Shown one piece after another: positions 9,852 to 51,740 of a stretch of 64,000 bases of DNA. Made by a program: the position numbers and the translations under genes. Origin of the DNA: a virus. The notes beneath the pieces were generated by a model. It did not search any database, had not been told where the DNA came from, and saw only the letters and a program-made list of their open reading frames with translations. The stretch spans positions 11,418 through 75,417 of the IMG/VR virus record IMGVR_UViG_3300035703_000058; one strand, given 5' to 3'. Numbering within the stretch: position 1 is the first letter of the stretch; each line of letters starts with the position of its first letter.

Positions 9852-10189
9852 GCCTGCGATTCAGCGAAGAGGATGAGCCCGCGTAGAACGCGCGGTGTAA
9901 TGCGACCTATCAGGCGCGCCAGCGTGAGTAGTGTTTCCACCTGCTCGGGGTTCATCGCCGCAACCACCTCGCGGAACCGCCCCATGATGTCGTCTGGCGG
10001 CAGCGGGTCGAGGCTGACGATCAGGCCCAGCGCCTGCATCCAGGCGGTGTAGTCGGTCACCGTGACGGCGTAGGCGCCGCGCTCGGTTCGCGAGACCCAT
10101 GCCTGGTCTCGGCCCATCCGGCGCGCCAGCTCGCCCTGAGACACGCCGGCCTTGAGTCGCTCACGGCGAAGTATCGCGTTCGGGATCAT
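9827..10189 (-). CDS. XRE-family HTH repressor (cI-like)
   Basis: LRRERLKAGVSQGELARRMGRDQAWVSRTERG; divergent from cro-like gene. Confidence 0.88.
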   Translation of the reverse strand: MIPNAILRRERLKAGVSQGELARRMGRDQAWVSRTERGAYAVTVTDYTAWMQALGLIVSLDPLPPDDIMGRFREVVAAMNPEQVETLLTLARLIGRITPRVLRGLILFAESQAQAETAAG

Positions 10190-10224
10190 GGCGTCACTCT
10201 GCCCCGGCGGGGGCGACGCGGCTA

Positions 10225-10288
10225 ATGTGGGGAGCACATGAATTCCCTGTTGCCGCGCAATGCGATTGCGGCTATGTGACAGGCGCAT
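10225..10288. promoter_or_regulatory. OR-like operators and PR-like promoter
   Basis: ATGTGGGGAGCACAT (10225-10239) and ATGTGACAGGCGCAT (10274-10288); TTGCCG-17-TATGTG at 10250-10278. Confidence 0.7.
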
Positions 10289-10517
10289 GGAAGCGAACAC
10301 CACCACCGAATCCCCACTTCGACGCCTGCGCGTGGCCCATGGCATGTCGCAGCGTCAGCTCGGCCTTCACCTTGGCATCGATCAGGCCGCGGTCTCCCGC
10401 CTGGAGACTGGCGAATACGAACTGCGAGAGGCGCAGATACGCATCCTCGTGGCCGTGTTCGGCGTGTCGGCGGACGAGCTGTTGGGGTTGACATCGGTGC
10501 CCTCGGTGTCGGCGTGA
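10287..10517 (+). CDS. XRE-family HTH protein (Cro-like)
   Basis: LRRLRVAHGMSQRQLGLHLGIDQAAVSRLETG. Confidence 0.88.
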   Translation: MEANTTTESPLRRLRVAHGMSQRQLGLHLGIDQAAVSRLETGEYELREAQIRILVAVFGVSADELLGLTSVPSVSA

Positions 10518-10660
10518 AGTCCGCGTCGGCGCGGCTGTTTGAGCATCTATGCGATTGGCGCATAGAGCGTCAAACCCCGATATGACGGGTTCGTCACTTT
10601 TTCGAGAGGCCAAGATGACCGACCCCTGCACCGTCGCGCCGCGCCGCATCGGAGGTGGCC

Positions 10661-11266
10661 ATGGTCCACTTTGACGCGCCGACTTGGCTGACCGGCGAGG
10701 CCAGCACGCCCGGGAAGAAGCACGCCAAGGCGGCACAGACGGGTCGTGAAGGCCAGCGCCGGGGACTTGGCTTCGAGGACGCGCTCGATGGCCTGCACGC
10801 CGCCTACAACGCCGCCGGGCGCGCGTGGGTAATCAAGGTGCCGGCGCCCTATCGGGTGCTGGGCAAGCCCACCGGCAGCCGGTTCACGGCGGCTTGGGAG
10901 GGCGAAGGTCCGCCCGACTATGCCGGCGCCGTCGGTGGCCGCCCGATCTGCTTCGATGCCAAGCAGACCGCCGGGGACCGATGGAGCTTTGACGCGCTCG
11001 CGCCGCATCAGGCCCAGCACTTCGACCGGGCGGCCGCGCAGGGCGTTGCCTGCTTCGTCCTGCTGTGGCTCGACGGCAACGTCTGGTTGGTGCCGTGGGC
11101 GACGCTGGGGCCGCGGTGGTGGGCTTGGCGCGAGCGGCGGGCGCTGCGTGAAGCCGTCCCCTATGGCAGCGCCTCGCTGTCTACGGCGGGTCTGCACGAC
11201 GTTGGCCACCGCTGTCAGGGCTACGACTGGCTGCCGGTTTTCTCGCGGCTGTGGGGGGCGCCATGA
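10661..11266 (+). CDS. RecU-like Holliday junction resolvase
   Basis: RGLGFE...Y...IKVP...PDYAG...ICFDAKQT...HQ motifs. Confidence 0.85.
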   Translation: MVHFDAPTWLTGEASTPGKKHAKAAQTGREGQRRGLGFEDALDGLHAAYNAAGRAWVIKVPAPYRVLGKPTGSRFTAAWEGEGPPDYAGAVGGRPICFDAKQTAGDRWSFDALAPHQAQHFDRAAAQGVACFVLLWLDGNVWLVPWATLGPRWWAWRERRALREAVPYGSASLSTAGLHDVGHRCQGYDWLPVFSRLWGAP

Positions 11267-13982: not shown

Positions 13983-14565
13983 CTGGCCCGCTCCCGTCTC
14001 AATAGAATGGGGTCCGCCCGGCGACAGCTCGTCTCCGTGGCGCATCGTCCTGCGCTGCCGGTGGGGCGAAGGTCCGCCGCTGGTCGTCTGCGGGCTTAAC
14101 CCGTCCACGGCGGACGCGGACAAGCCAGATCCGACTTGTGTCCGGTGGCTGGGCATGGCGCAGCGCTGGGGCTTCTCGGCGCTCACCGTCGCCAACGTCT
14201 ACCCGCTGCGGGCGACGTCACCGAAGGACCTGGAGCACGGGCGCTTCGCCATCGAGGGGCATGAGCCGCGCATCGTCGGACGCCTGCCCCCGGACGAGGT
14301 GCGCGACACCCTGGAAGCGCAACGCAACGAGGCGGTGAGGGCGTGCGGGTTGCTCCTGTGTTGTTGGGGTGCGGGTGGACCCGCCAGCTCCGCCTTCTGG
14401 GGTGGCGCGCCCGGCTTTCCCCGCCTTGTGTACCTGCACCGCGCTAACGGCTGCCCGATCCACCCGCTCGCCCGGATCAAGGGCGTCGAGGTGTCCAAGC
14501 TTCGCCCCCGATGCTGGTGGACGGGGAAGCTTGTTCCGCTTCCGATCGACAAGGGAGACGCATGA
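13975..14565 (+). CDS. DUF1643-family protein
   Basis: GLNPSTAD...DPT...WG...VANVYPLRATSPKDL...WG...HPL. Confidence 0.85.
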   Translation: MSSWPAPVSIEWGPPGDSSSPWRIVLRCRWGEGPPLVVCGLNPSTADADKPDPTCVRWLGMAQRWGFSALTVANVYPLRATSPKDLEHGRFAIEGHEPRIVGRLPPDEVRDTLEAQRNEAVRACGLLLCCWGAGGPASSAFWGGAPGFPRLVYLHRANGCPIHPLARIKGVEVSKLRPRCWWTGKLVPLPIDKGDA

Positions 14566-16649
14566 CGCCGCGTTACAAAGCCGTAGACCTGTTCGCCGGG
14601 GGCGGCGGTGCCTCGCTGGGCATCGAGTGGGCGCTTGGCGTGCCGCCCGTGTTGGCGGTCAACCACTGCCCGGCGGCGATACACATGCACGCCGCCAATC
14701 ACCCACAGACGATACATCTTACCGAGGATGTGTTTGACGTTTCGCCGTGGACCGTACACACCGGCGGCAAGGGACTGGATCTGCTTTGGGCCTCGCCGTC
14801 CTGCACGCACTTCTCCAGGGCGCGAGGCGGTAAGCCAGTCCGCGAGCAATTGCGCACGCTCGGTTGGGTGGTGGTCGAGTGGGCGCGGGCCATCGCCCCC
14901 CGCGTAATAATCACAGAGAACGTTGCTGAGATGCTCACGTGGGGTCCGCTGAATGGCGACGGCACCCCGATCAAGGCGCGGGCGGGCGAGACGTTCCGGG
15001 AGTGGGTAAAAGCGCTCCAGCTCGCGGGATATCGTGTCGAGTGGCGCATCCTCAACGCGGCCGACTTCGGCGCGCCGACGCGCCGCAAGCGCCTGTTCAT
15101 CGTCGCCCGGCGCGACCGTGAGCCGATCCGATGGCCGACACCGACGCACGGGAACGGGCTCGCACCGTGTGGGATCGTCGCCGACTGCATCGACTGGAGC
15201 ATCCCATGTCCGTCGATCTTCACCCGCAAGAAACCGCTGGCCGCCGCGACCTTGCGCCGCGTGGTCGAGGGCATCCGACGCTACGTGCTGAACGGGCGAC
15301 CCTTTCTGGTCAACCTCACGCACGGCGCCCGGGTGGAAAACGTCGATGAGCCCGCGCGCACCATCACCGGCGCCCACCGCGGCGAGAAGGCGGTCGTTGG
15401 TCCGCACCTGCTCAACCTGAGCCATGGCGGTCGCTCGGAGCCCGTGGACGAGCCGGCGCGGACCCTGACGGCGACGCCCAAGGGCGGTGACCGGATGGTG
15501 GTGGCGCCGATGTTCACCCGTGCGCATGGGCACGGCTGGGATTGTGGCGGTGGACCCTCAACACCGCCTGATGGGTTGCTGCCAACCCTGACGGCGACGG
15601 ACGAGCACGCGCTGGGCGCCGGCCATCTCGTCAAGCTCTACGGCAAGTCCACCGTCGCGGACATCGCCGAGCCCATGCCGACCATCACGGGCACCGACAA
15701 GCTGGGGCTGGCGTGCGCGTTCCTGGACAAGATGCGGGGCTCAGCGCGTGCGGGCCAGCGCATCGATCAGCTGGCGCCCACCGCGACCGCTGGAGGTGAG
15801 CATCAGGCGCTCATCGCGGCGAGCATCGTGCGCCACAACGGCACCACGCCCGGCCACGGCAACGCGGGCCGGGCGATGAACGAGCCCTTGGGCGCGGTGA
15901 CCTCGGTGGACACCCACGGGCTGATGTCGGCCTATCTGGTGAGTACCGCGAATGGCGAGCGCGAAGGCCAGCGGCCACGAGCGCGGCCTGTCACCGAGCC
16001 GCTGACCACCGTGACCGTGACGGGCTCGCCGGGCGCCATCGTGGGCGTCGGCCTCGCCCGCTATCATGGTGAGCGGCGGGACGGGGAAAACCCCCGTGTG
16101 GATGCGCTGGATGCGGCCATGCCGGTCCAGACGACGGAGAACCGCTTCGGCCTGATCGCGGGCAGCCTCGTCGCCTACTACGGCTCCGAGACCGACGGGC
16201 AGGGCCTGAACGAGCCGCTGCGCACGGTGCCAACGAAGGACCGCTTCGCGCACGTCGATTGCGACCTTCGCCAGCAGCTCACGGACGCGCAGCTCGACAC
16301 GGCGCTCGCGGTGGGTCAACTCCTGACCGCGCATGGCGTCGCGGTGGGTGCCGATGGCCTGGTGAGCCTGATTGTCGACGGCGAGCTGTACGTGCTCGTA
16401 GACATCGGGCTGCGGATGCTCACACCGCGCGAGTTGGCCCGGGCGCAAGGTTTCCCGGACACCTACCTGCTGACCGGCACCCGCAGCGAGCAGATCGCCC
16501 GCATCGGCAACAGCGTCTGCCCGCCCGTGGTGGAGGCGCTCGTTCGGGCGCAGCTTCGGCCCGAGACCGTGCGTTGGGTCGTAGATGACCCCCGCGGTGG
16601 TGTGCGCCGCCCACCTGTGCGCACACGCCAGACGAGCGCGCAGGCATGA
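14562..16649 (+). CDS. DNA cytosine-5 methyltransferase with repeat-rich variable region
   Basis: DLFAGGGG, WASPSCTHFS, ENV, AADFGAPTRRKRLF, RMLTPRELARAQGF, IGNSVCP. Confidence 0.93.
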   Translation: MTPRYKAVDLFAGGGGASLGIEWALGVPPVLAVNHCPAAIHMHAANHPQTIHLTEDVFDVSPWTVHTGGKGLDLLWASPSCTHFSRARGGKPVREQLRTLGWVVVEWARAIAPRVIITENVAEMLTWGPLNGDGTPIKARAGETFREWVKALQLAGYRVEWRILNAADFGAPTRRKRLFIVARRDREPIRWPTPTHGNGLAPCGIVADCIDWSIPCPSIFTRKKPLAAATLRRVVEGIRRYVLNGRPFLVNLTHGARVENVDEPARTITGAHRGEKAVVGPHLLNLSHGGRSEPVDEPARTLTATPKGGDRMVVAPMFTRAHGHGWDCGGGPSTPPDGLLPTLTATDEHALGAGHLVKLYGKSTVADIAEPMPTITGTDKLGLACAFLDKMRGSARAGQRIDQLAPTATAGGEHQALIAASIVRHNGTTPGHGNAGRAMNEPLGAVTSVDTHGLMSAYLVSTANGEREGQRPRARPVTEPLTTVTVTGSPGAIVGVGLARYHGERRDGENPRVDALDAAMPVQTTENRFGLIAGSLVAYYGSETDGQGLNEPLRTVPTKDRFAHVDCDLRQQLTDAQLDTALAVGQLLTAHGVAVGADGLVSLIVDGELYVLVDIGLRMLTPRELARAQGFPDTYLLTGTRSEQIARIGNSVCPPVVEALVRAQLRPETVRWVVDDPRGGVRRPPVRTRQTSAQA

Positions 16650-23610: not shown

Positions 23611-26088
23611 ATGGCCAGCTTCCGTCAGCACCTCGCCGCCGGTCTTCGGGCGGCCCTACAAGGCCCGCCCCCGGCCGCCACCCCGCCGCCCGCAGCGCGC
23701 GCCGACACGCTCGGCGCGATCAGCCCGACGTCGGCGGCGGCGCTGATCAACCCGATCAGCGGCATCGGCTCCGCGGACGACTCCGGCGCCGCCAGCCGCC
23801 CGAATCTCTCCCGCGAACGCCTGAGCATGGACGAGCTGGTGGCGCTGCTCCGGGGCAGCCTCTACCGGCGTATATGCGACGTGATCCCGTCTGATGCCAT
23901 GCGGCGCGGCCTCATCGTCACCGATGACACCCGCCGGTCCAATCCGCTGCAGGTTGAGCTGGAGCAGTTCGATGTGGCGGCGACGCTCCGACGGGCCGCC
24001 ACCTTGGGCCGCGCGCTCGGCACCGCCTGGATCTGGCCCGTAGTCGAGGATGGCGGCGCCCCGCTGTCGGAGCCGCTGGACATGCAGCGCGTCACCCGCC
24101 TCTACGCGCTGCACGTCCTGGATCCGCGCGACCTGACCGTGTGGACCTGGAGCCGCAACCTGCGCGAGCCCGGCGCGGGCCAGCCGTTGCTCTACACGTT
24201 GCAGCCTTGCCGCCCTGAGCTGTACGTGCCCCCCAACACGCTCATCCACCGCAGCCGCCTCATAGCCTTCTGGGGGGATGAACTACCCCCATCAGAGCAA
24301 CTCTACGGGAACGAGTCGCCGCTGGGCGACGCCATTGGTCAGACGATGTGGGATGGGCTACGCAACCTCACGCAGACCAGCGCGGCGGGCGCCCGGTTGG
24401 CTGAGGAGCTGTCCATCGCGGTGTTCTATCTGGCGAAGATGCCGGAGAAGGACGCCGCGGGCGGGCGCGACCTGCTGCGCACGGCCCTGAACAACATCAT
24501 GCGCTACAAGTCCATCGCCCACGGTCTTGTGCTCGGCACGGGCGACAAGGCCGAGCGGCTGGGCGCCAACGCTTCGGGCTTTGACACGCTCACCGAGGCG
24601 GGCTGGGAGGTCCTGCAGTCCCTCTCCGGGGTGCCGGCGGCGCGCCTGCGCGGCGTCGCCCCGAGCGGGCTGTCCACCGACGGCGCGAGCTGGCAGCAGA
24701 GCTACTACAGCGACGTGGACGCATGGGCTTCGGAGCGTTTGCAGCCCGCCGCCCGGCAGATCGTCCGCCTGCTGTACAGGCACCGCGGACAGGAGCCCGC
24801 CTCCTGGCACGTCGGCTTTGGCCCGTTCTACCACCTGTCGATGCAGGAGCAGGCGCAGCTACGCCTGCTCACCGCCCAACACGACCAGCTCGCCGAACAG
24901 GCCGGCTGGGTGACCGGCGAGCAGATCCGCCGCTCCCGCTACGGCGACGGCGGCTGGTCCTTCGAGATCCAGCCGGCCACCGACGGGGACGAGGCACGGC
25001 TCACCGGCGCCGTTGACCCGGAAGAGGCCGAAAAGACGCTTGCCGATCTGACGGGGGCGCCGCCGGACCCGCTGACCGCCGAGCAGGTCAAGCTGGTACA
25101 GGAGGTGCTGGGCAACGTCAGCGCCGGCAAGGTCACCACCGAGGTGGGTCGCCTGCTCCTGGAGGGCGTGGTTGGCGCCACGCGCGCCGCCGCCCTCATC
25201 GGCGCACAGGGCGCCGCCACCACAGTCGACGCCCCAGACCTCACCGCCCAACGCACCCTGGCCGCCTCGATGACCGCCCACGGGGTCGAACGCTGCGAGC
25301 ACGGCGCCGTGAACCGCTGCCGGATCTGCGGCATCGAGCGCGATCGGGCGCTCGTACTGGGCGCCGATGGCCAACCCACCCGCGACGCCGAGGGCCGCCC
25401 GGTGTGGGCGGTGCGCTGGCGGGCGCTGGGCGACCCCGATCCAACCCCGGACGCGACCACCACCGAGCCCCGACAGGACGCCGACTTCGGCGGCAAGGCC
25501 CTGCTGTCGCTCACGCTGGGCGAGACGGGGCGCGCCGCTTGGGCAGAGCTGGCGCGTCGGGCAACCGACATCACCGGCCCCCTGGAGGGCTACGAGGTCG
25601 GCGAGAACGGCATCGCCGAGCCCCCACACGTCACGGTGCTCTACCTTGGCGCCGTCGCCGACGAACACCTCGCGGAGATCGAACGCAGAGCGACCGCGGT
25701 CGTCGCCGACTTCGGCCCCATCGCGCTCCGGGCGAGCAGGATCGGCACGTTGCCCCCCGGGCCAGCCAGCGAGGGACGGGTGCCGGTGGTCGCCGAGATC
25801 CGAGCGTGGGAGCTGCCCGAGCTGAACGACCGCCTGCTGCGCGCGCTCGCGCCGTTCGTGACCGCGGATCAGTTCGCGCGCTTCCGGCCCCACGTCACGC
25901 TCGGCTTTGCCACCAACCCTACGCCCGAGCAGGTGGCCGCGCTGACGGAGATCCTGCCCGACACAGGGCCGACCGACATGATGTCGCTGGGCAGCGTCGC
26001 CGCGCTGGACCTCCACCACGGCAATCGGGTGGTGGCGCGGTTGCCCCTGCGCGGCACCCGGGCAGACGCCGATGCTGCTGAGCCCTGA
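23611..26088 (+). CDS. portal protein (DUF1073-type) fused to a C-terminal 2H phosphoesterase (Acb1-like)
   Basis: Portal motifs (RRICD...DAMR, IHRSRL, GVPAARLRGVAPSGL...G...YY); C-terminal PHVTVLY and PHVTLGF HxT pair. Confidence 0.88.
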   Translation: MASFRQHLAAGLRAALQGPPPAATPPPAARADTLGAISPTSAAALINPISGIGSADDSGAASRPNLSRERLSMDELVALLRGSLYRRICDVIPSDAMRRGLIVTDDTRRSNPLQVELEQFDVAATLRRAATLGRALGTAWIWPVVEDGGAPLSEPLDMQRVTRLYALHVLDPRDLTVWTWSRNLREPGAGQPLLYTLQPCRPELYVPPNTLIHRSRLIAFWGDELPPSEQLYGNESPLGDAIGQTMWDGLRNLTQTSAAGARLAEELSIAVFYLAKMPEKDAAGGRDLLRTALNNIMRYKSIAHGLVLGTGDKAERLGANASGFDTLTEAGWEVLQSLSGVPAARLRGVAPSGLSTDGASWQQSYYSDVDAWASERLQPAARQIVRLLYRHRGQEPASWHVGFGPFYHLSMQEQAQLRLLTAQHDQLAEQAGWVTGEQIRRSRYGDGGWSFEIQPATDGDEARLTGAVDPEEAEKTLADLTGAPPDPLTAEQVKLVQEVLGNVSAGKVTTEVGRLLLEGVVGATRAAALIGAQGAATTVDAPDLTAQRTLAASMTAHGVERCEHGAVNRCRICGIERDRALVLGADGQPTRDAEGRPVWAVRWRALGDPDPTPDATTTEPRQDADFGGKALLSLTLGETGRAAWAELARRATDITGPLEGYEVGENGIAEPPHVTVLYLGAVADEHLAEIERRATAVVADFGPIALRASRIGTLPPGPASEGRVPVVAEIRAWELPELNDRLLRALAPFVTADQFARFRPHVTLGFATNPTPEQVAALTEILPDTGPTDMMSLGSVAALDLHHGNRVVARLPLRGTRADADAAEP

Positions 26089-36911: not shown

Positions 36912-37495
36912 TGCCCACCGCCCTCTACGCCGACGACGGCACCTTTCTGCGCTTCGACGGCACCGCCACCGTGCGGGTCATCGCCGCCGACTCCGTGACC
37001 CGCCACCCCACCGAGCGCGGCGTCACCATCACCGACCACGTCCAGCGCGAGCCCCTGAGCGTGTCCATCGTGGCCACCGTCACCGAGAGCCCACTGCAGG
37101 AGCAGTCGGAGGTCAGCGGGGCCACCGCGGGCCTCACCGGCGAGGCCCGCCCACGCGCTGCGATGGACTGGCTCAACAGCCACCGCGGACAACGCCTGAC
37201 CCTCGTCAGCGACGGCTACGACGACCTCGACGACCTCGTGCTCGTGCGGGTGCCCAACGAGGTCACCGCGAGCCGCCAGCGCATACTCAGCTTGGAGCTG
37301 ACGCAGATCCTGGTGGCGTCGGTCGAATACGTCGCCATCCCGCCCGAGCTGCCCCCGGCGGCCACCGCACACGCCTTCGCCGACGCCGCCGATCTTGGCG
37401 AGCAGGGCACCATCTCAGGCACCGACGACACCGCCCAGCAGGCCCGCGACGTGTCGGCCGCAAGCCTCCTGTTGACCTACATCGGAGGCGGGTGA
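36911..37495 (+). CDS. baseplate/tube initiator (Dit-like)
   Basis: VTRHPTERG..ITDHV..EP. Confidence 0.8.
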   Translation: MPTALYADDGTFLRFDGTATVRVIAADSVTRHPTERGVTITDHVQREPLSVSIVATVTESPLQEQSEVSGATAGLTGEARPRAAMDWLNSHRGQRLTLVSDGYDDLDDLVLVRVPNEVTASRQRILSLELTQILVASVEYVAIPPELPPAATAHAFADAADLGEQGTISGTDDTAQQARDVSAASLLLTYIGGG

Positions 37496-37860
37496 TGGCG
37501 ACCTCGATCCTGCCCGGCTACCCGAACCTGCCCGAACACAGCTACGTCGTCACGCTGGGCGAGGCCCGTTACCGCGTGACGCTGATCTGGCGCGAGCGGC
37601 CCGCGTCCTGGTACATGGACCTGCACACCCAGGATGGCACCGAGCTGGTGCTGGGCAAGCGGCTCGCCCCGGGTTGGTCTCCGCTGGCCGGCGCAGACCT
37701 CGGAGAGCACGCCCCCGATGGGCTCCTCTACTGCCGCGGCCCGGACAACTACAGCCGCATGGACCTCGGAGACACGCTCGTGCTGGTCTACGTGCCGCAG
37801 GAGGACATCGACGCCGCCACGACCGTCGAGGCGAGCGCGCTCACCTTCGAGGTGGCCTGA
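37495..37860 (+). CDS. baseplate plug-like protein
   Basis: VTLG...Y......W......WYMDL......L..G..L; ends LVYVP. Confidence 0.75.
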   Translation: MATSILPGYPNLPEHSYVVTLGEARYRVTLIWRERPASWYMDLHTQDGTELVLGKRLAPGWSPLAGADLGEHAPDGLLYCRGPDNYSRMDLGDTLVLVYVPQEDIDAATTVEASALTFEVA

Positions 37861-38672
37861 TGGTGCCCTTCGGGCGTCAGGTCATCCTGGAGTTCGGCTT
37901 GCCCGGGCAGCAGGGCCGCCGCTTCCGGGACCTGTCGGTCACCTTCCGGGTGGAGATGACGCAGACAGCGACGCCCAACACGGCCCGCATCGTGGCCCGC
38001 AACCTCGCCGCCGACTCCGTGGCGCTCCTGCAGCGCGACGGCGTGGTGGTGCGCCTGCTGGCCGGCTACGACGCCCCCCGCCTCGTCTTCCAGGGCGAGC
38101 CCGTCCGCAACGGCGTCGATGAGCGCTATGAGGGCACCGACCGCGTCCTGACGCTTGACCTGCAGGACGGCGGGCGCAGCTACCGTCTGGGCCGCGTCTC
38201 GGTCTCCTACGCGACCGCGACCACGCTCGGGCAGGTGCTGGACGCCGTGACAGACCAGCTTGGCTTGCCGCTCGGCACCATCGACGTCGATCGCACGGTC
38301 GGGCTCGGGCGCGGCATCGTGCTCCGCGGCCCAGCCCGCGACGTGCTGGACCAGATCGCGGAAGCCTCCGACGCCCGCTGGTCCATCATCGACGGCGCCC
38401 TGAACATCATCGCCCGCACCGGCAGCCTGGCGGACCAGGCCGTCGTCTTCTCGGCTGCCCGCGGCAACCTCATCGGCTCCCCCAGCCGGAAGGACGGCGG
38501 CGTCGAGGTCAAGGGGCTCATCGCCCCCAGCCTACGCCCCGGCAAGCTCTTCCGGGTGGAGAGCGCGTTCATCACCGGCGACTATGTGGCCACCGAGGTG
38601 GACTTCATGGGCGGGCTGCGCGAGCAGGACTTCTACGTGGTCGCGCGGGGCCGCCCCCGCCGGAGCGTGTGA
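37860..38672 (+). CDS. baseplate hub protein
   Basis: PNTARI...NL...LLAGY...FQG...WSI.DG...LIGSP. Confidence 0.82.
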   Translation: MVPFGRQVILEFGLPGQQGRRFRDLSVTFRVEMTQTATPNTARIVARNLAADSVALLQRDGVVVRLLAGYDAPRLVFQGEPVRNGVDERYEGTDRVLTLDLQDGGRSYRLGRVSVSYATATTLGQVLDAVTDQLGLPLGTIDVDRTVGLGRGIVLRGPARDVLDQIAEASDARWSIIDGALNIIARTGSLADQAVVFSAARGNLIGSPSRKDGGVEVKGLIAPSLRPGKLFRVESAFITGDYVATEVDFMGGLREQDFYVVARGRPRRSV

Positions 38673-39349
38673 TGCACCAGAACGACGCGCTGCTGGGTCT
38701 TGTCCGCGCCGAAGTCGCGCGGGTCCACACCACCTTCCCCGGCGTAGTCGTGCGCTACGACCGCACCCGCCAGACCGCCGCCGTGCAGATCGTCCCGCGG
38801 TTCCGCTGGCGCAACCCCGACACCGATGAGCTGGTGTTCGAGCAGGTCCCGCAGCTCCCGGACGTGCCGATCCTCTTTCCGGCGGGCTCCGGCGTGTCAC
38901 TGGTCTGGGATCTCGCCGCGGGCGACCCGGTGTGGGTGGTGGTGGCCGACCGCTGCATCGCCGAGTGGAAGGCGACCGGCAACGCCGACACCGAGCCGCA
39001 GACCCCCCGGCGCTGGGACTTCTCCGACGCCGTGGCCTTTCCCGGTGGCGCCTGCCCGGCGGACCCGCTGTCCGGCACGGCGCTCCCGTCGGCGGCGGGC
39101 ATGGTGGTCCTCAAGGGTGGCGACGTCCGGCTGGGCAGCTCGGCGGCGGTGTCGGGCGTGGCGCTGGCGCCGTTGGTGGAGGCCCAGCTCACCACGCTGG
39201 AGACGGCGCTACAGACGGCGCTCACCGCGGGCATTGCGGCCGGCGGCGGCGGCGTAATCGCTGCGCTCACCGCGATGCAGACGGCGCTGACGACGGCGCT
39301 GGCGGCGTGGCCATCCACCACCGCGGCGACGAAGGTCAAGGCGGAGTAG
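38669..39349 (+). CDS. baseplate spike/puncturing protein (Gp138/gpV-like)
   Basis: T.FPG.V..YD...LPDVP..FP...GD...ADRCI..W...R.D.SDA..FPG; ends TKVKAE. Confidence 0.85.
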   Translation: MMHQNDALLGLVRAEVARVHTTFPGVVVRYDRTRQTAAVQIVPRFRWRNPDTDELVFEQVPQLPDVPILFPAGSGVSLVWDLAAGDPVWVVVADRCIAEWKATGNADTEPQTPRRWDFSDAVAFPGGACPADPLSGTALPSAAGMVVLKGGDVRLGSSAAVSGVALAPLVEAQLTTLETALQTALTAGIAAGGGGVIAALTAMQTALTTALAAWPSTTAATKVKAE

Positions 39350-39389
39350 TCGCCCTTGACGCGCGGAAGCGACGCGCTACAGGTTGTAC

Positions 39390-39462
39390 TGCGACTTGAC
39401 GCAGCGGTTAGCGTGCTGGCCTCATAAGCCGGAAGTCGGTGGTTCGAATCCACCAGTCGCTA
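39390..39462 (+). tRNA. tRNA with CAU anticodon (Met; U1:U72 mismatch suggests initiator-like); CCA not encoded
   Basis: Cloverleaf: acceptor TGCGACT/AGTCGCT-A, D arm ACGC/GCGT, anticodon arm CTGGC-CTCATAA-GCCGG, T arm GGTGG-TTCGAAT-CCACC; TTGACG element just upstream. Confidence 0.93.
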
Positions 39463-39822
39463 CTTCTCAGGCCGCTGGACGGGCCACGCAGCCCTCGGTC
39501 GACTGGCTGTCCCGCGCGCCCACCGCTTCGCGAGCTTCAACGCCATCGCGCCCGGACGTCGGCTGCTCGTGCTGGGCAGCACCTCAGCGGCCACGGCATT
39601 CCAGGACCCGAGCCGGACGAACGCCTCGTAGCACCGCGCCCCCGTCAAGCGCCCCGGCGGCCACGGCAGCCCGGCGAGTTGGGCGTATTCGAGGGCCAGC
39701 CGCCGGGCAGTGGCCCGGGGCACGTCCAACCGACCCGCGGCGCCGGTCAGCGAGCACCCGGCGACCATGAGCGCGTACAGGCGCTGACCGGTGTCCGGTG
39801 GATGCAGGCGCGGGCGGGTCAA
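39460..39822 (-). CDS. small HTH-like protein, last gene of the Cas-associated operon
   Basis: TTG start overlaps cysH-like stop; GCSLTGAAGRLDVPRATARR; stop codon overlaps last 3 nt of tRNA. Confidence 0.6.
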   Translation of the reverse strand: MTRPRLHPPDTGQRLYALMVAGCSLTGAAGRLDVPRATARRLALEYAQLAGLPWPPGRLTGARCYEAFVRLGSWNAVAAEVLPSTSSRRPGAMALKLAKRWARGTASRPRAAWPVQRPEK

Positions 39823-40658
39823 GATACCGCCCGAACAGCCGGATCGATGTCGGCGGCGAGCTGCCACAGGTCGGGCCACCAGCGGCGCAGCCATGCGTAA
39901 TGGCTGCCAATCGTCGCGGGCAGACCGCCCACGACCCACCAGCTCTTGCGCAGAGACAGCGCATCCATCCCCGGGTCAACGCACAGATAGCAGGGCAGCA
40001 ACGGCACCTGCTCGCGAACCAGGAAGGCGTGAACGTCGAGCGCGCTCCAGGCGGCGATGGGCTGGGCCACCGTGAGCCCGTCCTTGCGCCTGTAGACGCT
40101 GCCGCGGGTGGCGTTCATGGCGCGCCCCCGGCTCTCGCCAGCCCTCAGCCCGAGCAGCGCGCCATCGTAGCCATGGTGTAGACGATGGGCGTTCAGCAGC
40201 CCATAGAAGTGCTCGGCGCTCAGCTCGGCGGTTCTGCCGTGGTGGTCGTTCAGCAGCGACCGCTGCCCGGCGAGCACCGACCACAGCGACACACCGGGGC
40301 TCAGGATGTCCAGGTGCAGGCCAAGATGGCGGCAAAGGTGCTCGATGTAGGCCCGTTCGCCGGGGTAATCGAGGTCGTCCTTGACGCTCACGGCGGGCGG
40401 GTGCCAACCATGCAGGGCCAGCAGCGCCGCCATGGCTGAGCTGTCCTTGCCGCCGCTCAGGCTCGCGCACCAACCCACCGACACCGCCGCGGCCGCATCC
40501 AGCGCCCGTCGCGCGACTGTGATCTTGTGGTCCATGGCTCGGGAGCGCGCGTGCAACGCCACCGCCCGCCACGGATAGTGCAGGCCCACATCCGAACGCC
40601 CGGGCAACGCACCATCGCCGCACCAGGCGATGATCTGGCGGAGCCAGTCAGTCCTCAT
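39819..40658 (-). CDS. CysH/PAPS-reductase-like PP-loop protein (type IV-B accessory type)
   Basis: SLSGGKDS, LGLRAGESRGR, QPIAAWSALDV. Confidence 0.88.
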   Translation of the reverse strand: MRTDWLRQIIAWCGDGALPGRSDVGLHYPWRAVALHARSRAMDHKITVARRALDAAAAVSVGWCASLSGGKDSSAMAALLALHGWHPPAVSVKDDLDYPGERAYIEHLCRHLGLHLDILSPGVSLWSVLAGQRSLLNDHHGRTAELSAEHFYGLLNAHRLHHGYDGALLGLRAGESRGRAMNATRGSVYRRKDGLTVAQPIAAWSALDVHAFLVREQVPLLPCYLCVDPGMDALSLRKSWWVVGGLPATIGSHYAWLRRWWPDLWQLAADIDPAVRAVS

Positions 40659-41241
40659 CGACCATCTCCCAGGCGCCGGAGAACTCGACGTTGCGGAACA
40701 GCTCGGCGACCCCGGTCACCTGCTTGTAGCGGTAGATGGTGTCCAGGTCCACACCCAGGGCCAGGGCGATCTGTTCGTCCTCCATGCCCTGCTCGCACAT
40801 CCGGCGTATCAGGTCGGCGTCGAGGTCCACCTGATGCACGCCGCGGGCCTTGTTGAACTGCCACGTCGCCGCCAGCCGCCGCGACAGATCGTGCGGCAAC
40901 ACCACCACGGGCAGGTAGTCACAGTCCAGCCAGTCCGGCCCCAGCACCATCTTGCGGTGGGCGCCGTCGATGACCACGAACAGGCGCTGCTCAGGATCGA
41001 ACACGGTGACGATGGGAAAGCAAAACCCGTTGTCGAGCACCGACTGGAGCAGCAGCTCCATCTTGTCGGGGCTCACGCTGTTGGGGTTGTAGAAATTCTC
41101 GACTACCAGCTCCGCACGAACCAGCACGGCGCGCAGGCAGGGCACCGGAATGCGTCCGCGGGTCTTGGAGGTGATGTAGGCGCCCTCCGACCCCCCAGCG
41201 CGCCACGCCTCGAAGTCGGCCATCGTGTCGATCCTGAGCAT
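40648..41241 (-). CDS. IbrB-like ParB/Srx-domain protein
   Basis: NFYNPNSV...MELL..S...NGF.FPIV...IDGAHR...AT..FNKARGVH. Confidence 0.9.
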   Translation of the reverse strand: MLRIDTMADFEAWRAGGSEGAYITSKTRGRIPVPCLRAVLVRAELVVENFYNPNSVSPDKMELLLQSVLDNGFCFPIVTVFDPEQRLFVVIDGAHRKMVLGPDWLDCDYLPVVVLPHDLSRRLAATWQFNKARGVHQVDLDADLIRRMCEQGMEDEQIALALGVDLDTIYRYKQVTGVAELFRNVEFSGAWEMVDED

Positions 41242-42374
41242 CAGAGCACCTCGGCGTAATGGGCGATGAGCGCGTCGCGGGGGTCGGCCTTGTTGTCAAC
41301 CGGCAGGTTGTTCTCGTAGTCGTTGAGAACGAGCTGGCGGCATTGCTGCCGGGCCACGAACTCATTGTCCAGGTGCCCGCCGAACCGGCGACGTAAGATG
41401 TCCGCCTTGGCCGGATCCGGGTGGGTCGCCAACAGGAAATCGCGGTAGACCCGCCACGAACGAAAGTTCTTCGGCAGCTTGCGGCATCGAAACAGCGTCG
41501 CCGCCTTGGCCGTTTCCTGCGCAAGCGCAATGCCCCTGATGCGCTTCTGCAGCCGCGCGTAGGTCTTGGGCTCAAAGGCAGGCAGGTCGGCCAGCGCGCG
41601 AAAGCTGCGCTCGTGTATGAGCGAAGACACTCGCCGCTCGCCCAGCGGGTAGCCCATCTTGTGCTGGAAGTCGTAGACCCTGGAGTACCTGAGCCCCTCC
41701 ATGGCGATGTACTTCCAGACATCGTGCGCGTTCCAGTCGTAGATCGGGTAGAGCGTGACGGTGCTCGCCCGGCGTGTGCCCCAATAGACGCGCTGGCCGT
41801 CGCCGATCTCGATGGGGTGCTTGGTGACCGCGCGCCAGCGGTTCGGGCTCTCTCCGGCGGCGCGCAGGCCGACCAGAAAGGCGTGGCCGGGGTAGCAGCG
41901 GGCGAAAGTCTCGATCACGTCGTAGAAGCCAAAGCCCTTGTTCCGGTCGCGCACGGTGACCTGCTCGGGCGCCCACGGTGGGTGCTGGATGGCGTCGCGC
42001 TCCTTTGCGCGCATCCAGGTTTTGTGCTCCCCCGGCTCCCAGGCGTTGAGCTGACCTTCGGTCAGGCTGGTCGCGTTGGTGAGGCGGAAAGGCACCTGAA
42101 GCCACAGCGGCCGCGTGTTCTCCGGGTACAGCGCCATCAGGTAGCGCACCTGCTCAACGCTGCTCTGGTACATGACCTCCTCATCGAGCAGGTGTACGCC
42201 GATGCGCAGCCCCCGGCGGTTGGCCTCCACCAAGGCAAGATGAGCCAACACGGTGCTGTCCTTGCCGCCGCTCACGCTGACGATCACCTTGTCGCCGAAG
42301 GCGTCGAAGACCATGCGGACACGGCGCTGGGCAGCGGCGAGCACGGTCTCACCCGTGTAGTGCTGTCGCGACAT
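41241..42374 (-). CDS. IbrA-like PAPS-reductase-family (PP-loop) protein
   Basis: VSVSGGKDS, LVGLRA..ES.NR, YPIYDW...DVW, YD......RVS.. Confidence 0.9.
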   Translation of the reverse strand: MSRQHYTGETVLAAAQRRVRMVFDAFGDKVIVSVSGGKDSTVLAHLALVEANRRGLRIGVHLLDEEVMYQSSVEQVRYLMALYPENTRPLWLQVPFRLTNATSLTEGQLNAWEPGEHKTWMRAKERDAIQHPPWAPEQVTVRDRNKGFGFYDVIETFARCYPGHAFLVGLRAAGESPNRWRAVTKHPIEIGDGQRVYWGTRRASTVTLYPIYDWNAHDVWKYIAMEGLRYSRVYDFQHKMGYPLGERRVSSLIHERSFRALADLPAFEPKTYARLQKRIRGIALAQETAKAATLFRCRKLPKNFRSWRVYRDFLLATHPDPAKADILRRRFGGHLDNEFVARQQCRQLVLNDYENNLPVDNKADPRDALIAHYAEVL

Positions 42375-43904: not shown

Positions 43905-44611
43905 TCCGACGGGCGCGCCTGCCAGCACGCCACCCGCTGCCCGCCGTAGTAGGGCGGACGCAGCGGCAGAAGGGTTTGGACGGTGTGGGCGGGTGGATTG
44001 GACGCCCGCCCCACGGGGAGGTGTCGGAGCCGCACATCGTCGAGGTAGTCGCCCGGGGCGGGACCGCCCACGGCGACCCGCCAGCCATCAACCCAGCCGA
44101 TGCCATGGCAGCCCAACCCGCCGATCGCCGGCACCGGCGCGAGCAACCTGCCGAGCTGGTCCAGCGGCGCCAGATCCCAGCCGAGCGTGCGGTTGACCTC
44201 GCCGACGCGGGCCTCGTCCAGCACGCCGGTCCACACCAGCTCGCGGCACGCCGCCCACAGGTGCTTGCGCACGCGCAGGCTCTTGTCGGGGCCAGCCTTC
44301 ATGTCCACGGGCCCGCCGGCCCGATGGCGCATGTACCAGTCCACAGGTGCCCGGCGGTGCAGGTGGTGGGTGCGTTCAGGCCCGACCGGCGCCGCCTGAG
44401 AGGCTGCCCACCACCACAGACCCCCGTCGGCGACAACCGCCGCGAACGGCAGCAGGTCCCATACACGCGGGTTGTAGGCCGGGTGGGCGACCGGGTCCAG
44501 CCGATTCAGCCACATCGCCAGCCCAACCCCCGCGAGCGCGTCCAACATCGGCGGGTTGGGCAGGTTCGGCCCGGGCGGGCGCAGCGCCGCCGTGACGGTG
44601 ACCGGAATCAC
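43901..44611 (-). CDS. csf3: type IV Cas5-family RAMP protein Csf3
   Basis: MLDAL, WAAS, GPDKSLR, Gly-rich loop AIGGLGCHGIGWV..W, C-terminal LRPPYY. Confidence 0.85.
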   Translation of the reverse strand: MIPVTVTAALRPPGPNLPNPPMLDALAGVGLAMWLNRLDPVAHPAYNPRVWDLLPFAAVVADGGLWWWAASQAAPVGPERTHHLHRRAPVDWYMRHRAGGPVDMKAGPDKSLRVRKHLWAACRELVWTGVLDEARVGEVNRTLGWDLAPLDQLGRLLAPVPAIGGLGCHGIGWVDGWRVAVGGPAPGDYLDDVRLRHLPVGRASNPPAHTVQTLLPLRPPYYGGQRVACWQARPSE

Positions 44612-49533: not shown

Positions 49534-50121
49534 CTACGGGTAGAGTTGGCGGGAGAGGGCGCCCGCGCCGAACCCGGCGGGGGTGGCGTTGGCGGGGGAC
49601 TCGAAGCCGACCGGGCTGGCGGTGTACTCGACCAGCAGCATGGTCACCCCGGCGGGCTTGATGGCGACCATGAAGCGCATCACCCGGCCCAGCAGGGCGT
49701 CGGCCAGCGGGGTGGAGCGCCCGAAGTACAACCGAAACCCGGCGGCGAACATGTCGTAGTGGACCGCCACGCAGGGCGCGGCGATCAGCTCCAGGATGGC
49801 CAGCAGCTCGTCCGGTGTGCCGTTGCACTTCCTGGCGAGCAGACGCGCGGCGATGAAGCGCCGGTAGTCGGCGTCGTCCAGCCCTTCGCGGCGCTCGCCG
49901 ACGATGGACCCGAGCAGGTCCAGGTCCGCGTCGTTGGCGGTGTCAAGCCCGAGCGCCAGGGCCCGGGCGGCGATCTCGTCCTCCAGCACCTGACAGCCGT
50001 GGGCGAGCGCGCGGACGAACGCCTCCAGGCGCGGCTTGCCATACAGGCCGGCGGGCAGGTTGTTGACGGCGGCGTCGCCGATGAGGAGGTTGTGTACCAG
50101 CTCGTAGGTGTCGGAGGCCAT
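49534..50121 (-). CDS. baseplate wedge protein (DUF2612/gpI-like)
   Basis: LDTA....LDLLGSIVG..R.GLDD..YR; KPAGV. Confidence 0.85.
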   Translation of the reverse strand: MASDTYELVHNLLIGDAAVNNLPAGLYGKPRLEAFVRALAHGCQVLEDEIAARALALGLDTANDADLDLLGSIVGERREGLDDADYRRFIAARLLARKCNGTPDELLAILELIAAPCVAVHYDMFAAGFRLYFGRSTPLADALLGRVMRFMVAIKPAGVTMLLVEYTASPVGFESPANATPAGFGAGALSRQLYP

Positions 50122-51308
50122 CAGGTCGTGACGCTCGCGGTGCCGTTGAGGGTGCAGCGCTCGTAGAGGTTCGGGGTGACGACGGCGGCGCCGTTGAGGG
50201 TGATGGCGCTGACGCGGCGGACGCCGGTCACCCGCATGATGGCGGTGTCGTCTTCGTCGTCGTTGCGACCGGCCTTGAGGTCGTCGTCGGTGATCTCCTC
50301 ACCGATGGCGGCATCGGCGAAGTAGGCGGCCACGGCGTCTTTGACGGCTTGCGAGACGTCGGCCAGCACGTAGCCGGTGTCCAGCACCACCGTGACGGCG
50401 ACCGTCACCGACAGATCGGCGACGTCATCCCACCGAACTGTTTTCGTCAGCCCATCGCCGCCCGTGATGGTGACGACGTTGTCGCTCCCGTTGGTCTTGA
50501 TGCCCGCGGCCAGCCGCTCATAGACGGTCTCGGCGATCTCTTCCTTCTGCGCCGTCGTGAGGTCGGCGCCGGGCGGATCGAGGATGATGGCGATGGACTG
50601 TGGGTCAAGGTTGACGCCGCCGGTCGTCACCGAGGCGGCGGTGTCGTTCTCGATGACGATGGCCGTGTCGATGTAGTCGAGGTCGGTCAACGCGGCCCGG
50701 ATGGCGTTCGTTGAGCCCGACCCGGCGAACTGCAGCGAGGCCGCCTGTCGCAGCCGGTAGGCGCTGTCCGTCTCCAGGGCGCGGCCCGCGGTGGCGGCGG
50801 CCGCGTTGGACACCGCGGTCCAGCCGGAGACCGGCGTCACGATGGTGTCGATCTCGGTGGCGAGCGCGGCCACCGCCCCGGCTTCGACGGCCTGCACGGT
50901 CGCCGACACGGTGCCCCCGCCGCCGATGGTGGCGTCGTCGGTCAGCGCCCACCGGGCCGCGCCGTCGGTGCCGCCGCCCTCAACAATCTTGCCCTGTGGG
51001 ATGACGGTGCCGGCGGTGCCGGTGAGGGTAACGGTCGCCGTCGAGTGGGTGGCCTGGTTGCGGGCGATGCCACGAAGGGCGCCGATGCCGTCGAGCTGCG
51101 TACCCTGCGCGGAGTCGGGGTCAAGCTGGTCGTTGAGCGACTGCAGGGCTTCGCCAAGGTTGCCCAGCTCGTTGGCGAGCACCGCGAAGAGCACATCGAG
51201 CAGATCGCCGCGCCCGACCTCCACGGTGCCGCCGTTGGCGTCGGCGGCGAAGGCGGAGCGCATTGCGGTGTCGAAGTCGGTCGCGCGGGGCGCGGAGTAG
51301 CTGGCCAT
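50121..51308 (-). CDS. baseplate J-like protein
   Basis: PDSAQG..LD, GTAGTVIPQG, IVTPVSGW, GR..ETD..YR.R, IEND. Confidence 0.92.
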   Translation of the reverse strand: MASYSAPRATDFDTAMRSAFAADANGGTVEVGRGDLLDVLFAVLANELGNLGEALQSLNDQLDPDSAQGTQLDGIGALRGIARNQATHSTATVTLTGTAGTVIPQGKIVEGGGTDGAARWALTDDATIGGGGTVSATVQAVEAGAVAALATEIDTIVTPVSGWTAVSNAAAATAGRALETDSAYRLRQAASLQFAGSGSTNAIRAALTDLDYIDTAIVIENDTAASVTTGGVNLDPQSIAIILDPPGADLTTAQKEEIAETVYERLAAGIKTNGSDNVVTITGGDGLTKTVRWDDVADLSVTVAVTVVLDTGYVLADVSQAVKDAVAAYFADAAIGEEITDDDLKAGRNDDEDDTAIMRVTGVRRVSAITLNGAAVVTPNLYERCTLNGTASVTT

Positions 51309-51314
51309 GGTGTC

Positions 51315-51740
51315 CTATGGCGCCGTGGGCGCCACCACGATGGCGCGCGGGCGAATGGTGATGGCGGGGTAGGTGTTGCCGCCGACCGCCGTGGGCGTCG
51401 CGACGATCTCCAGGTGCGTGCCGTCGGCGGTGACGGCGTTGCCGGTCACGGTGAGCAGGCCGGTGGTGCGGTTGAGGCTGCCGGTCCAGTCGGAGACGCT
51501 GACGACGCCGACGGTCTCCCGGACTTCGCGGCGGACCCGGGCCACGATGGCGTCCACGGCGACCGGCTTCGTGGTGAGCCAGACCACGTACGGGAGGCCC
51601 TTCGTGGCGTCGCGCAGGCCCTCACCGAGATGGGTCGTGAGCCGGATGTAGACGCGCTGCGCGACCAGCTCGGCGCCGACGTGGGGCCGGCCATACAGCG
51701 GCAGATCGCCATCGGTGTCCAGCGCAAGGTCAATCGGCAT
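51315..51740 (-). CDS. baseplate wedge/sheath initiator (gp25/W-like)
   Basis: DLALD..GDL...VAQR...RL.T..GE...D...GLPY...GV. Confidence 0.85.
   Translation of the reverse strand: MPIDLALDTDGDLPLYGRPHVGAELVAQRVYIRLTTHLGEGLRDATKGLPYVVWLTTKPVAVDAIVARVRREVRETVGVVSVSDWTGSLNRTTGLLTVTGNAVTADGTHLEIVATPTAVGGNTYPAITIRPRAIVVAPTAP

Follow-up and report, generated by a model that had tools for sequence, protein, structure and literature searches.

In the phage genome studied here, a tRNA gene and the last gene of a Cas operon share three base pairs. The question that this locus raises is whether the contact reflects a functional link between the two or is a coincidence of genome rearrangement. The window, i.e., the whole stretch of DNA that was analyzed (64,000 nt), corresponds to bases 11418-75417 of a 75,417-bp IMG/VR virus record, which has a terminal repeat of 127 bp and a G+C content of 70%. 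A preliminary description of this DNA regarded an initiator-like tRNA(CAU) as physically interlocked with the operon and suggested that it could be a ligand, a substrate or a guide source for the array-less Csf complex or a CysH-like enzyme.

The tRNA is located where two oppositely directed units converge: a plus-strand head/tail unit and a minus-strand unit with the csf, cysH-like and HTH genes (Table 1). The plus-strand genes up to position 39349 encode, according to PHROGs, a protease, the major head protein, the sheath, the tape measure and the baseplate hub. The stop codon of the 226-aa gene that closes this unit is 40 nt upstream of the tRNA, and the tRNA is probably co-transcribed with that gene. 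The minus-strand unit runs from about 47.5 kb down to 39460. It starts with genes of Csf1-, Csf2- and Csf3-like proteins, then includes a DNA methyltransferase fragment and a 347-aa ORF, and continues with genes of an IbrA-like protein, a 197-aa HTH protein and a CysH-like protein, followed by a small terminal ORF. The three csf-like genes, all upstream of the cysH-like gene, were identified by the PADLOC models for type IV systems, and the IbrA-like protein combines PAPS_reduct with DUF3440. A consensus scan of positions 38600-40800 revealed no sigma-70-like and no terminator-like sites, in agreement with the preliminary description, which saw no terminator between the tRNA and the last operon gene. 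By eye, a TTGACG motif with a poor -10 element can be seen at 39356-39361.

Table 1. Features around the convergence point (window coordinates)
Feature	Position	Strand	Remarks
Final gene of the plus-strand head/tail unit (226 aa; follows the baseplate hub)	38669..39349	+	GC3 0.93
Indel cassette of 107 nt (19 nt + tRNA + 15 nt)	39371..39477		Carried by the window; cleanly missing from close relatives
tRNA(CAU), 73 nt	39390..39462	+	ARAGORN; Rfam RF00005; MFE fold
Small HTH protein, ~120 aa, last gene of the operon	39460..39822	-	GC3 0.87
GACG repeat	39478..39481; copy at 39371-39374 (first four bases of the cassette)		Edges of the indel
CysH-like PP-loop protein (PAPS_reduct), penultimate gene of the type IV-B csf operon	39819..40658	-	Pfam PF01507, E 1.7e-10

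Several other features of the genome are worth mentioning. The Cas operon and the tRNA divide the tail module: the sheath, tube, tape measure and hub genes are on the plus strand and baseplate genes are on the minus strand, where Baseplate_J and DUF2612 genes occupy positions 49534-51740, upstream of the operon. The portal protein (Phage_portal_3; 23611-26088, plus strand) carries a C-terminal 2H phosphoesterase/LigT-like domain (Pfam 2_5_RNA_ligase2, E 4.6e-13). DNA-modification genes are also plentiful outside the Cas-linked set; they encode a Mom-family protein, a DUF5131 protein and a C5 cytosine methylase and lie at 1201-2157 and 10013-11086 of the genome (both on the minus strand) and at 14511-16649 of the window (plus strand). 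GenBank phages gave only remote matches to the capsid and CysH-like proteins, and the sheath protein matches only viral clusters of a protein atlas. The nearest named relatives of the DnaB protein belong to Alphaproteobacteria MAGs (43%), which is only a weak hint of the host.

The tRNA itself is an ordinary phage-encoded tRNA gene. ARAGORN reports it as tRNA-Met (cat) at 39390-39463, the single tRNA in the window, and it is also the sole tRNA of the entire 75,417-bp record. The Rfam model RF00005 matches 39390-39462 with 62.4 bits at a cut-off of 29 and flags 1:72 as a non-standard pair; the MFE fold is a cloverleaf in which nucleotides 1 and 72 are unpaired. The acceptor end consists of the U1/U72 mismatch, the pairs G2:C71, C3:G70 and G4:C69, and A73, which is followed by CUU, i.e., no CCA is encoded. 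In the D stem, A10-C11-G12-C13 faces G22-C23-G24-U25, so that position 11:24 is C11:G24. The anticodon stem is built of C27:G43, U28:G42, G29:C41, G30:C40 and C31:G39. These data bear out what was first noticed at this gene, namely that it is the only tRNA, that it has a U1:U72 mismatch and no encoded CCA, and that it keeps two of the three consecutive G-C pairs of the anticodon stem. The last point can be refined: the third pair is still a G-C pair, but a flipped one (C31:G39).

We compared metagenome contigs with the window over positions 37000-41500. According to the alignment summary, runs X3 and X5 of a single seawater study include contigs that are ~95% identical to the window and in which position 39370 is joined directly to 39478, with exactly 107 nt missing. 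One of these contigs (X3 record 11) spans 38367-39370 and 39478-40358 at ~95% identity; the tRNA-less sequence extends into the tail gene in one direction and across the HTH and cysH-like genes in the other. The ibrAB-like genes are covered by yet another contig. The tRNA is retained in another contig of the same run as the tRNA-less one. Among close relatives that have the operon in common, the tRNA is thus present in some and absent in others (a presence/absence polymorphism), and the 107-nt segment is an insertion/deletion polymorphism within the phage lineage. The GACG at its edges can be either a microhomology or a target-site-like repeat. We favor insertion over deletion with some confidence because the homology of the HTH protein ends at the indel edge; a microhomology deletion would fit the 4-nt GACG repeat too, and the direction is favored rather than proven. 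Among the matches listed, none of the sequencing runs that contain the locus sequence was an RNA run.

The effect of the indel on the operon is seen in its last gene. The HTH gene probably starts with a TTG (39822) that overlaps the stop codon (TGA) of the cysH-like gene, and it ends with a TAG at 39462-39460 (minus strand), the complement of C71-U72-A73 of the tRNA, precisely the overlap reported in the preliminary description. The HTH protein has a single detectable homolog among 5.8 billion proteins, P0195 (181 aa, Pfam HTH_23). The two are 63% identical over residues 4-115 of the window protein, and the alignment is gapless up to the residues PRAAWPV. It stops at residue 115, whose codon, 39480-39478, is the last one before the indel edge; from there on the window protein continues with QRPEK and its stop, and P0195 with 17 different residues. 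Residues 116-120 (QRPEK) and the TAG are encoded within the tRNA cassette. Because the homology ends at the indel edge, we conclude that the cassette supplied the last five codons and the stop codon. The HTH gene overlaps the tRNA, therefore, because the cassette provides the first in-frame stop. The "interlock" of tRNA and operon is most likely a by-product of the indel that involves no functional coupling. The idea that the U/U mismatch is a local adaptation that creates the stop was rejected, as U1/U72 occurs in seven other phage tRNAs of the group described below. At its N-terminus, P0195 has a second HTH-like segment of ~50 aa that is missing from the HTH gene of the window; the upstream in-frame extension of the latter overlaps the cysH-like gene and has no similarity to this segment. 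The locus illustrates clearly how one tRNA gene moves as a ~100-nt cassette between ~95%-identical phages and rewrites the end of a neighboring gene.

If the tRNA served the Cas operon, it would be expected to accompany homologous loci as well. Related-locus searches with Csf2, with the baseplate hub, whether one sequence or an alignment was used, and with the HTH protein gave nothing useful, and a search in metagenome contigs returned only a 2-kb fragment. With the cysH-like gene we collected 31 homologous loci, 17 viral (IMG/VR) and 14 cellular. Most of the viral loci include relatives of the IbrA-like and the 197-aa HTH proteins, and several include relatives of Csf2, Csf3 or the methyltransferase; the cellular loci are mostly mycobacterial type IV-B loci. 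ARAGORN detected no tRNA within 6 kb of any of the 17 viral loci, and no tRNA(CAU) lies within 10 kb of any of the 14 cellular ones. The preliminary description had proposed to count tRNA(CAU) genes beside such loci and had taken a lack of linkage, on the sequence side, as speaking against its suggestion; the count is 0/31. Like other type IV-B Csf loci with cysH-like accessory genes, the operon beside the tRNA combines Csf1/2/3-like and cysH-like genes, whereas this tRNA(CAU) gene has no counterpart in the 31/31 homologs and is missing from the close phage relatives. The tRNA should not be assigned to the type IV-B Csf/IbrAB/CysH system. It gives no clue to the target of this system, and analyses of the operon can stop at the HTH gene. 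The closest relative of the operon, whose genes follow the same order and whose IbrA is 83% identical, belongs to a 133-kb phage with terminal repeats (L002). A degenerate tRNA-like stretch with a good T arm is located there at L002:9661-9729 (minus strand), 2.9 kb downstream of the cysH-like gene and converging on it. It scores 24.7 bits with the Rfam tRNA model, which is below the cut-off, and is not called by ARAGORN, and it was not counted as linkage.

A coupling between the tRNA and the operon could take several forms: the Csf complex or the CysH-like and IbrA-like PP-loop enzymes might use the tRNA as ligand, as substrate or as a source of guides, or the overlapping stop codon might enforce co-inheritance or antisense regulation. 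The adjacency with its 3-nt overlap seems to suggest this, yet the overlap was created by the indel, and the end of the operon persists in close relatives that lack the tRNA, so the claim of a physical interlock is not supported. Type IV-B complexes are known to assemble on heterogeneous non-CRISPR RNAs (bioRxiv 10.1101/2020.07.31.231399), which makes a tRNA ligand conceivable, but no tRNA(CAU) was found at the 31 homologous loci. As for the enzymes, the CysH-like and IbrA-like proteins match PAPS_reduct, while they match the models of TtcA and TilS only faintly, with scores far under the cut-off; judging by these profiles, nothing appears to mark them as tRNA modifiers. A guide role could be read from a 20-nt stretch of the tRNA (39401-39420, D arm to anticodon stem) that is 18/20 identical to 43921-43940 of the minus (mRNA-sense) strand, at the csf3/methyltransferase junction. 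This match is same-sense, marginal and one among many comparisons; 8 of 300 dinucleotide shuffles of the tRNA equalled or beat it against the genome, and we judged it a chance similarity. All in all, we consider the coupling highly improbable, and the proposal of a ligand, substrate or guide source is likewise not supported. Even less can be said for the tRNA as a remnant or target of integration, i.e., an attP-type tRNA or the edge of an island with which the Cas operon arrived. The 3' ends of tRNA genes are often used for integration by islands and prophages, and the operon ends exactly at such a 3' end; but the tyrosine integrase gene (genome 5025-6491) is ~45 kb away from the tRNA (genome 50807-50879), and no partial tRNA repeat exists at the other end of the operon or elsewhere in the window, where the 22 nt at the 3' end of the tRNA did not recur even when as many as 3 mismatches were allowed. 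Neither an adjacent integrase nor a distal direct repeat of the 3' part of the tRNA thus supports integration. Moreover, relatives differ in the 107-nt cassette and not in the operon, which makes this explanation extremely improbable.

The next question is what kind of tRNA the cassette carries. An anticodon CAU is shared by initiator tRNA, elongator tRNA-Met and tRNA-Ile2. With bacterial tRNAfMet (E. coli metY and metZWV) and phage initiator-type tRNA-Met(CAU), the window tRNA shares this anticodon, the lack of a Watson-Crick pair 1:72, the pairs G2:C71, C3:G70 and G4:C69, A73, the pairs G29:C41 and G30:C40, and the CUCAUAA loop. In bacterial tRNAfMet the 1:72 position is C/A, in contrast to U/U here, and the D stem has A11:U24, whereas the window tRNA has C11:G24, the flipped pair C31:G39 and no encoded CCA. 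A purine11:pyrimidine24 pair, A11:U24, is typical of bacterial initiators. Of the features by which initiators are recognized, the acceptor-end determinants of formylation by Fmt (no Watson-Crick 1:72, with G2:C71, C3:G70 and A73) are therefore present, while the purine11:pyrimidine24 pair and the three consecutive G:C pairs 29:41, 30:40 and 31:39 are not. The 1:72 mismatch together with 2:71 and 3:70 is the major Fmt determinant (PMC5389676). The departure from the strict three-G:C rule does not exclude function, because the same change in E. coli tRNAfMet leaves the molecule functional: the GC/GC/cg mutant, which has the same pairs 29:41, 30:40 and 31:39 as the window tRNA, sustains E. coli as its sole initiator and is absent from the listed cold-sensitive mutants (the "3rd CG" mutant of Shetty et al., NAR 2017, PMC5389676). 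That mutant was engineered in the body of E. coli tRNAfMet, whereas the window variant is natural, phage-borne and has a different body. The natural variants named in the same paper, au/GC/GC and GC/GC/gu, keep purine:pyrimidine pairs.

The G29-G30-C31 stem is not a peculiarity of this phage. The anticodon arm CUGGC-CUCAUAA-GCCGG occurs in eight other viral contigs, and a looser pattern (G29-G30-C31 ... G39-C40-C41 with the T loop) in over 119 IMG/VR contigs; when 31 nt of the tRNA were searched as an exact string, IMG/VR gave no match. From these tRNAs we obtained a set of 54 unique, well-parsed phage tRNA(CAU) genes with the G29-G30-C31 stem. A 1/72 mismatch is found in 29 of the 54, eight times as U/U; the other states are G-U (3 genes), U:A or A:U (10) and G1:C72 (10). 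Nearly all members of the mismatch class have G2-C3-G4/C69-G70-C71 and A73, like the window tRNA, and nine of the 29, the window tRNA included, have a pyrimidine11:purine24 pair. Within the same contigs the mismatch occurs in 34/64 CAU tRNAs vs 4/342 other tRNAs (Fisher p 2e-27). An enrichment restricted to CAU tRNAs implies that the mismatch, the hallmark of initiators, is a selected CAU-specific feature. By its anticodon arm and its initiator-type acceptor end the window tRNA belongs to this group. The arm was found in 0 of 727 cellular genomes from Actinomycetota, a small-genome phylum and the phylum of a Bacillota MAG, a sample that does not cover Pseudomonadota, the likeliest host phylum; a generic CAU pattern recovered 1-4 tRNAs in each of five control genomes.

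On the strength of these features we regard the window tRNA as probably of the initiator type, and the earlier view of it as initiator-like holds: it has the acceptor-end Fmt determinants, and the GC/GC/cg stem works in the body of E. coli tRNAfMet. It could instead be an elongator tRNA-Met in which U1/U72 is tolerated rather than functional and which supplements the decoding of internal AUG codons late in infection. The C11:G24 pair and the elongator-like D and T arms agree with this, as does the best full-length match among GenBank phages, the elongator-looking tRNA-Met of Ruegeria phage V10 (75.7% identity, G1:C72). In favor of an elongator is also the presence of G2:C71 and C3:G70 in E. 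coli elongator tRNA-Met. However, a mismatch found in 34/64 CAU and only 4/342 non-CAU tRNAs looks like a selected identity mark and not like tolerated noise; a missing 1:72 pair weakens EF-Tu binding; and G29:C41 and G30:C40 are both present. An elongator is accordingly unlikely in our opinion, but it is the most probable of the alternatives. A tRNA-Ile2, in which TilS of the host would convert C34 to lysidine so that AUA is read, is very unlikely. It would share the CAU anticodon, A37, A38 and A73, but the window tRNA has G4:C69, G12:C23 and G29:C41 against the IleRS/TilS elements C4:G69, U12:A23 and C29:G41 (these elements are rules for E. coli only). Besides, the 1/72 mismatch and the acceptor stem of the group are those of initiators, and AUA should be rare at 70% G+C.

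Two further phage tRNAs came up in these comparisons. Ruegeria phage vB_RpoS-V10 has a second annotated tRNA-Met (L176:2264-2339) with an initiator-type acceptor stem UGCGGGA...UCCCGCA and A11:U24; its anticodon stem consists of A29:U41, U30:G40 and C31:G39, i.e., none of the three G:C pairs is in the initiator orientation. A match to a Caulobacter phage "tRNA-Ile" was discarded, since that gene is a GAU tRNA with only the T arm in common.

An initiator-type tRNA brought by an indel leads to the following account, which as a whole we consider likely: a genuine phage tRNA(CAU), most likely of the initiator type, is carried by a 107-nt indel, and the interlock with the operon is its by-product. 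The cassette would have entered the HTH gene within its final codons, and this gene would then terminate at the first in-frame stop that the insert offers, the complement of tRNA nucleotides 71-73. We infer that the tRNA is transcribed together with the late genes and trimmed, and that CCA would be added by a host enzyme. Host MetRS could charge it by virtue of the CAU anticodon and A73, and formylation would be expected because there is no 1:72 pair and G2:C71 and C3:G70 are present. The charged tRNA may then be used in the P site and sustain or boost the initiation of phage proteins.

An additional benefit of such a tRNA to the phage is possible by analogy with known cases. The enteric VapC cuts tRNAfMet between A38 and C39 (PMC4105405), and position 39 is G in the window tRNA and in its phage group. 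Phage tRNAs for which escape from host tRNA nucleases has been proposed or demonstrated (eLife 2023, PMC10264068; Nat Commun 2024, PMC11555353; Nature 2024, PMC11464382) are likewise phage-encoded copies changed at or beside a known cleavage site. A nuclease-resistant replacement initiator may be viewed in the same way. It is unlikely, in our estimate, that the C31:G39 flip is the mark of a class of initiator tRNAs, widespread and for the most part confined to phages, which retain initiation function while the VapC-site C39 is replaced, so that they serve as nuclease-resistant spares; if so, the 107-nt cassette would be a small counter-defense gene, gained and lost among close relatives. The distribution of the arm (more than 119 viral contigs, 0 of the 727 cellular genomes) is what speaks for this idea. 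According to the eLife 2023 paper (PMC10264068), phages as a rule avoid a tRNA-fMet gene in the case of VapC-LT2 (S. flexneri), whereas the phage studied here carries an initiator-like tRNA. The large phage set of initiator-like tRNAs with a GC/GC/cg stem could serve as a natural test case for the "3GC rule" and for the view that host tRNA nucleases shape phage tRNAs.

Members of this set are also found in large tRNA arrays of other viral contigs. In an array of 21 tRNAs (L054:1664-3453) the sole tRNA(CAU) is the initiator-like G29-G30-C31 form with U1/U72. In another one, of 27 tRNAs (L048:812-9168), the sole initiator-like tRNA(CAU) is again the G29-G30-C31 form, here with C1/U72, and a second tRNA-Met is also present.
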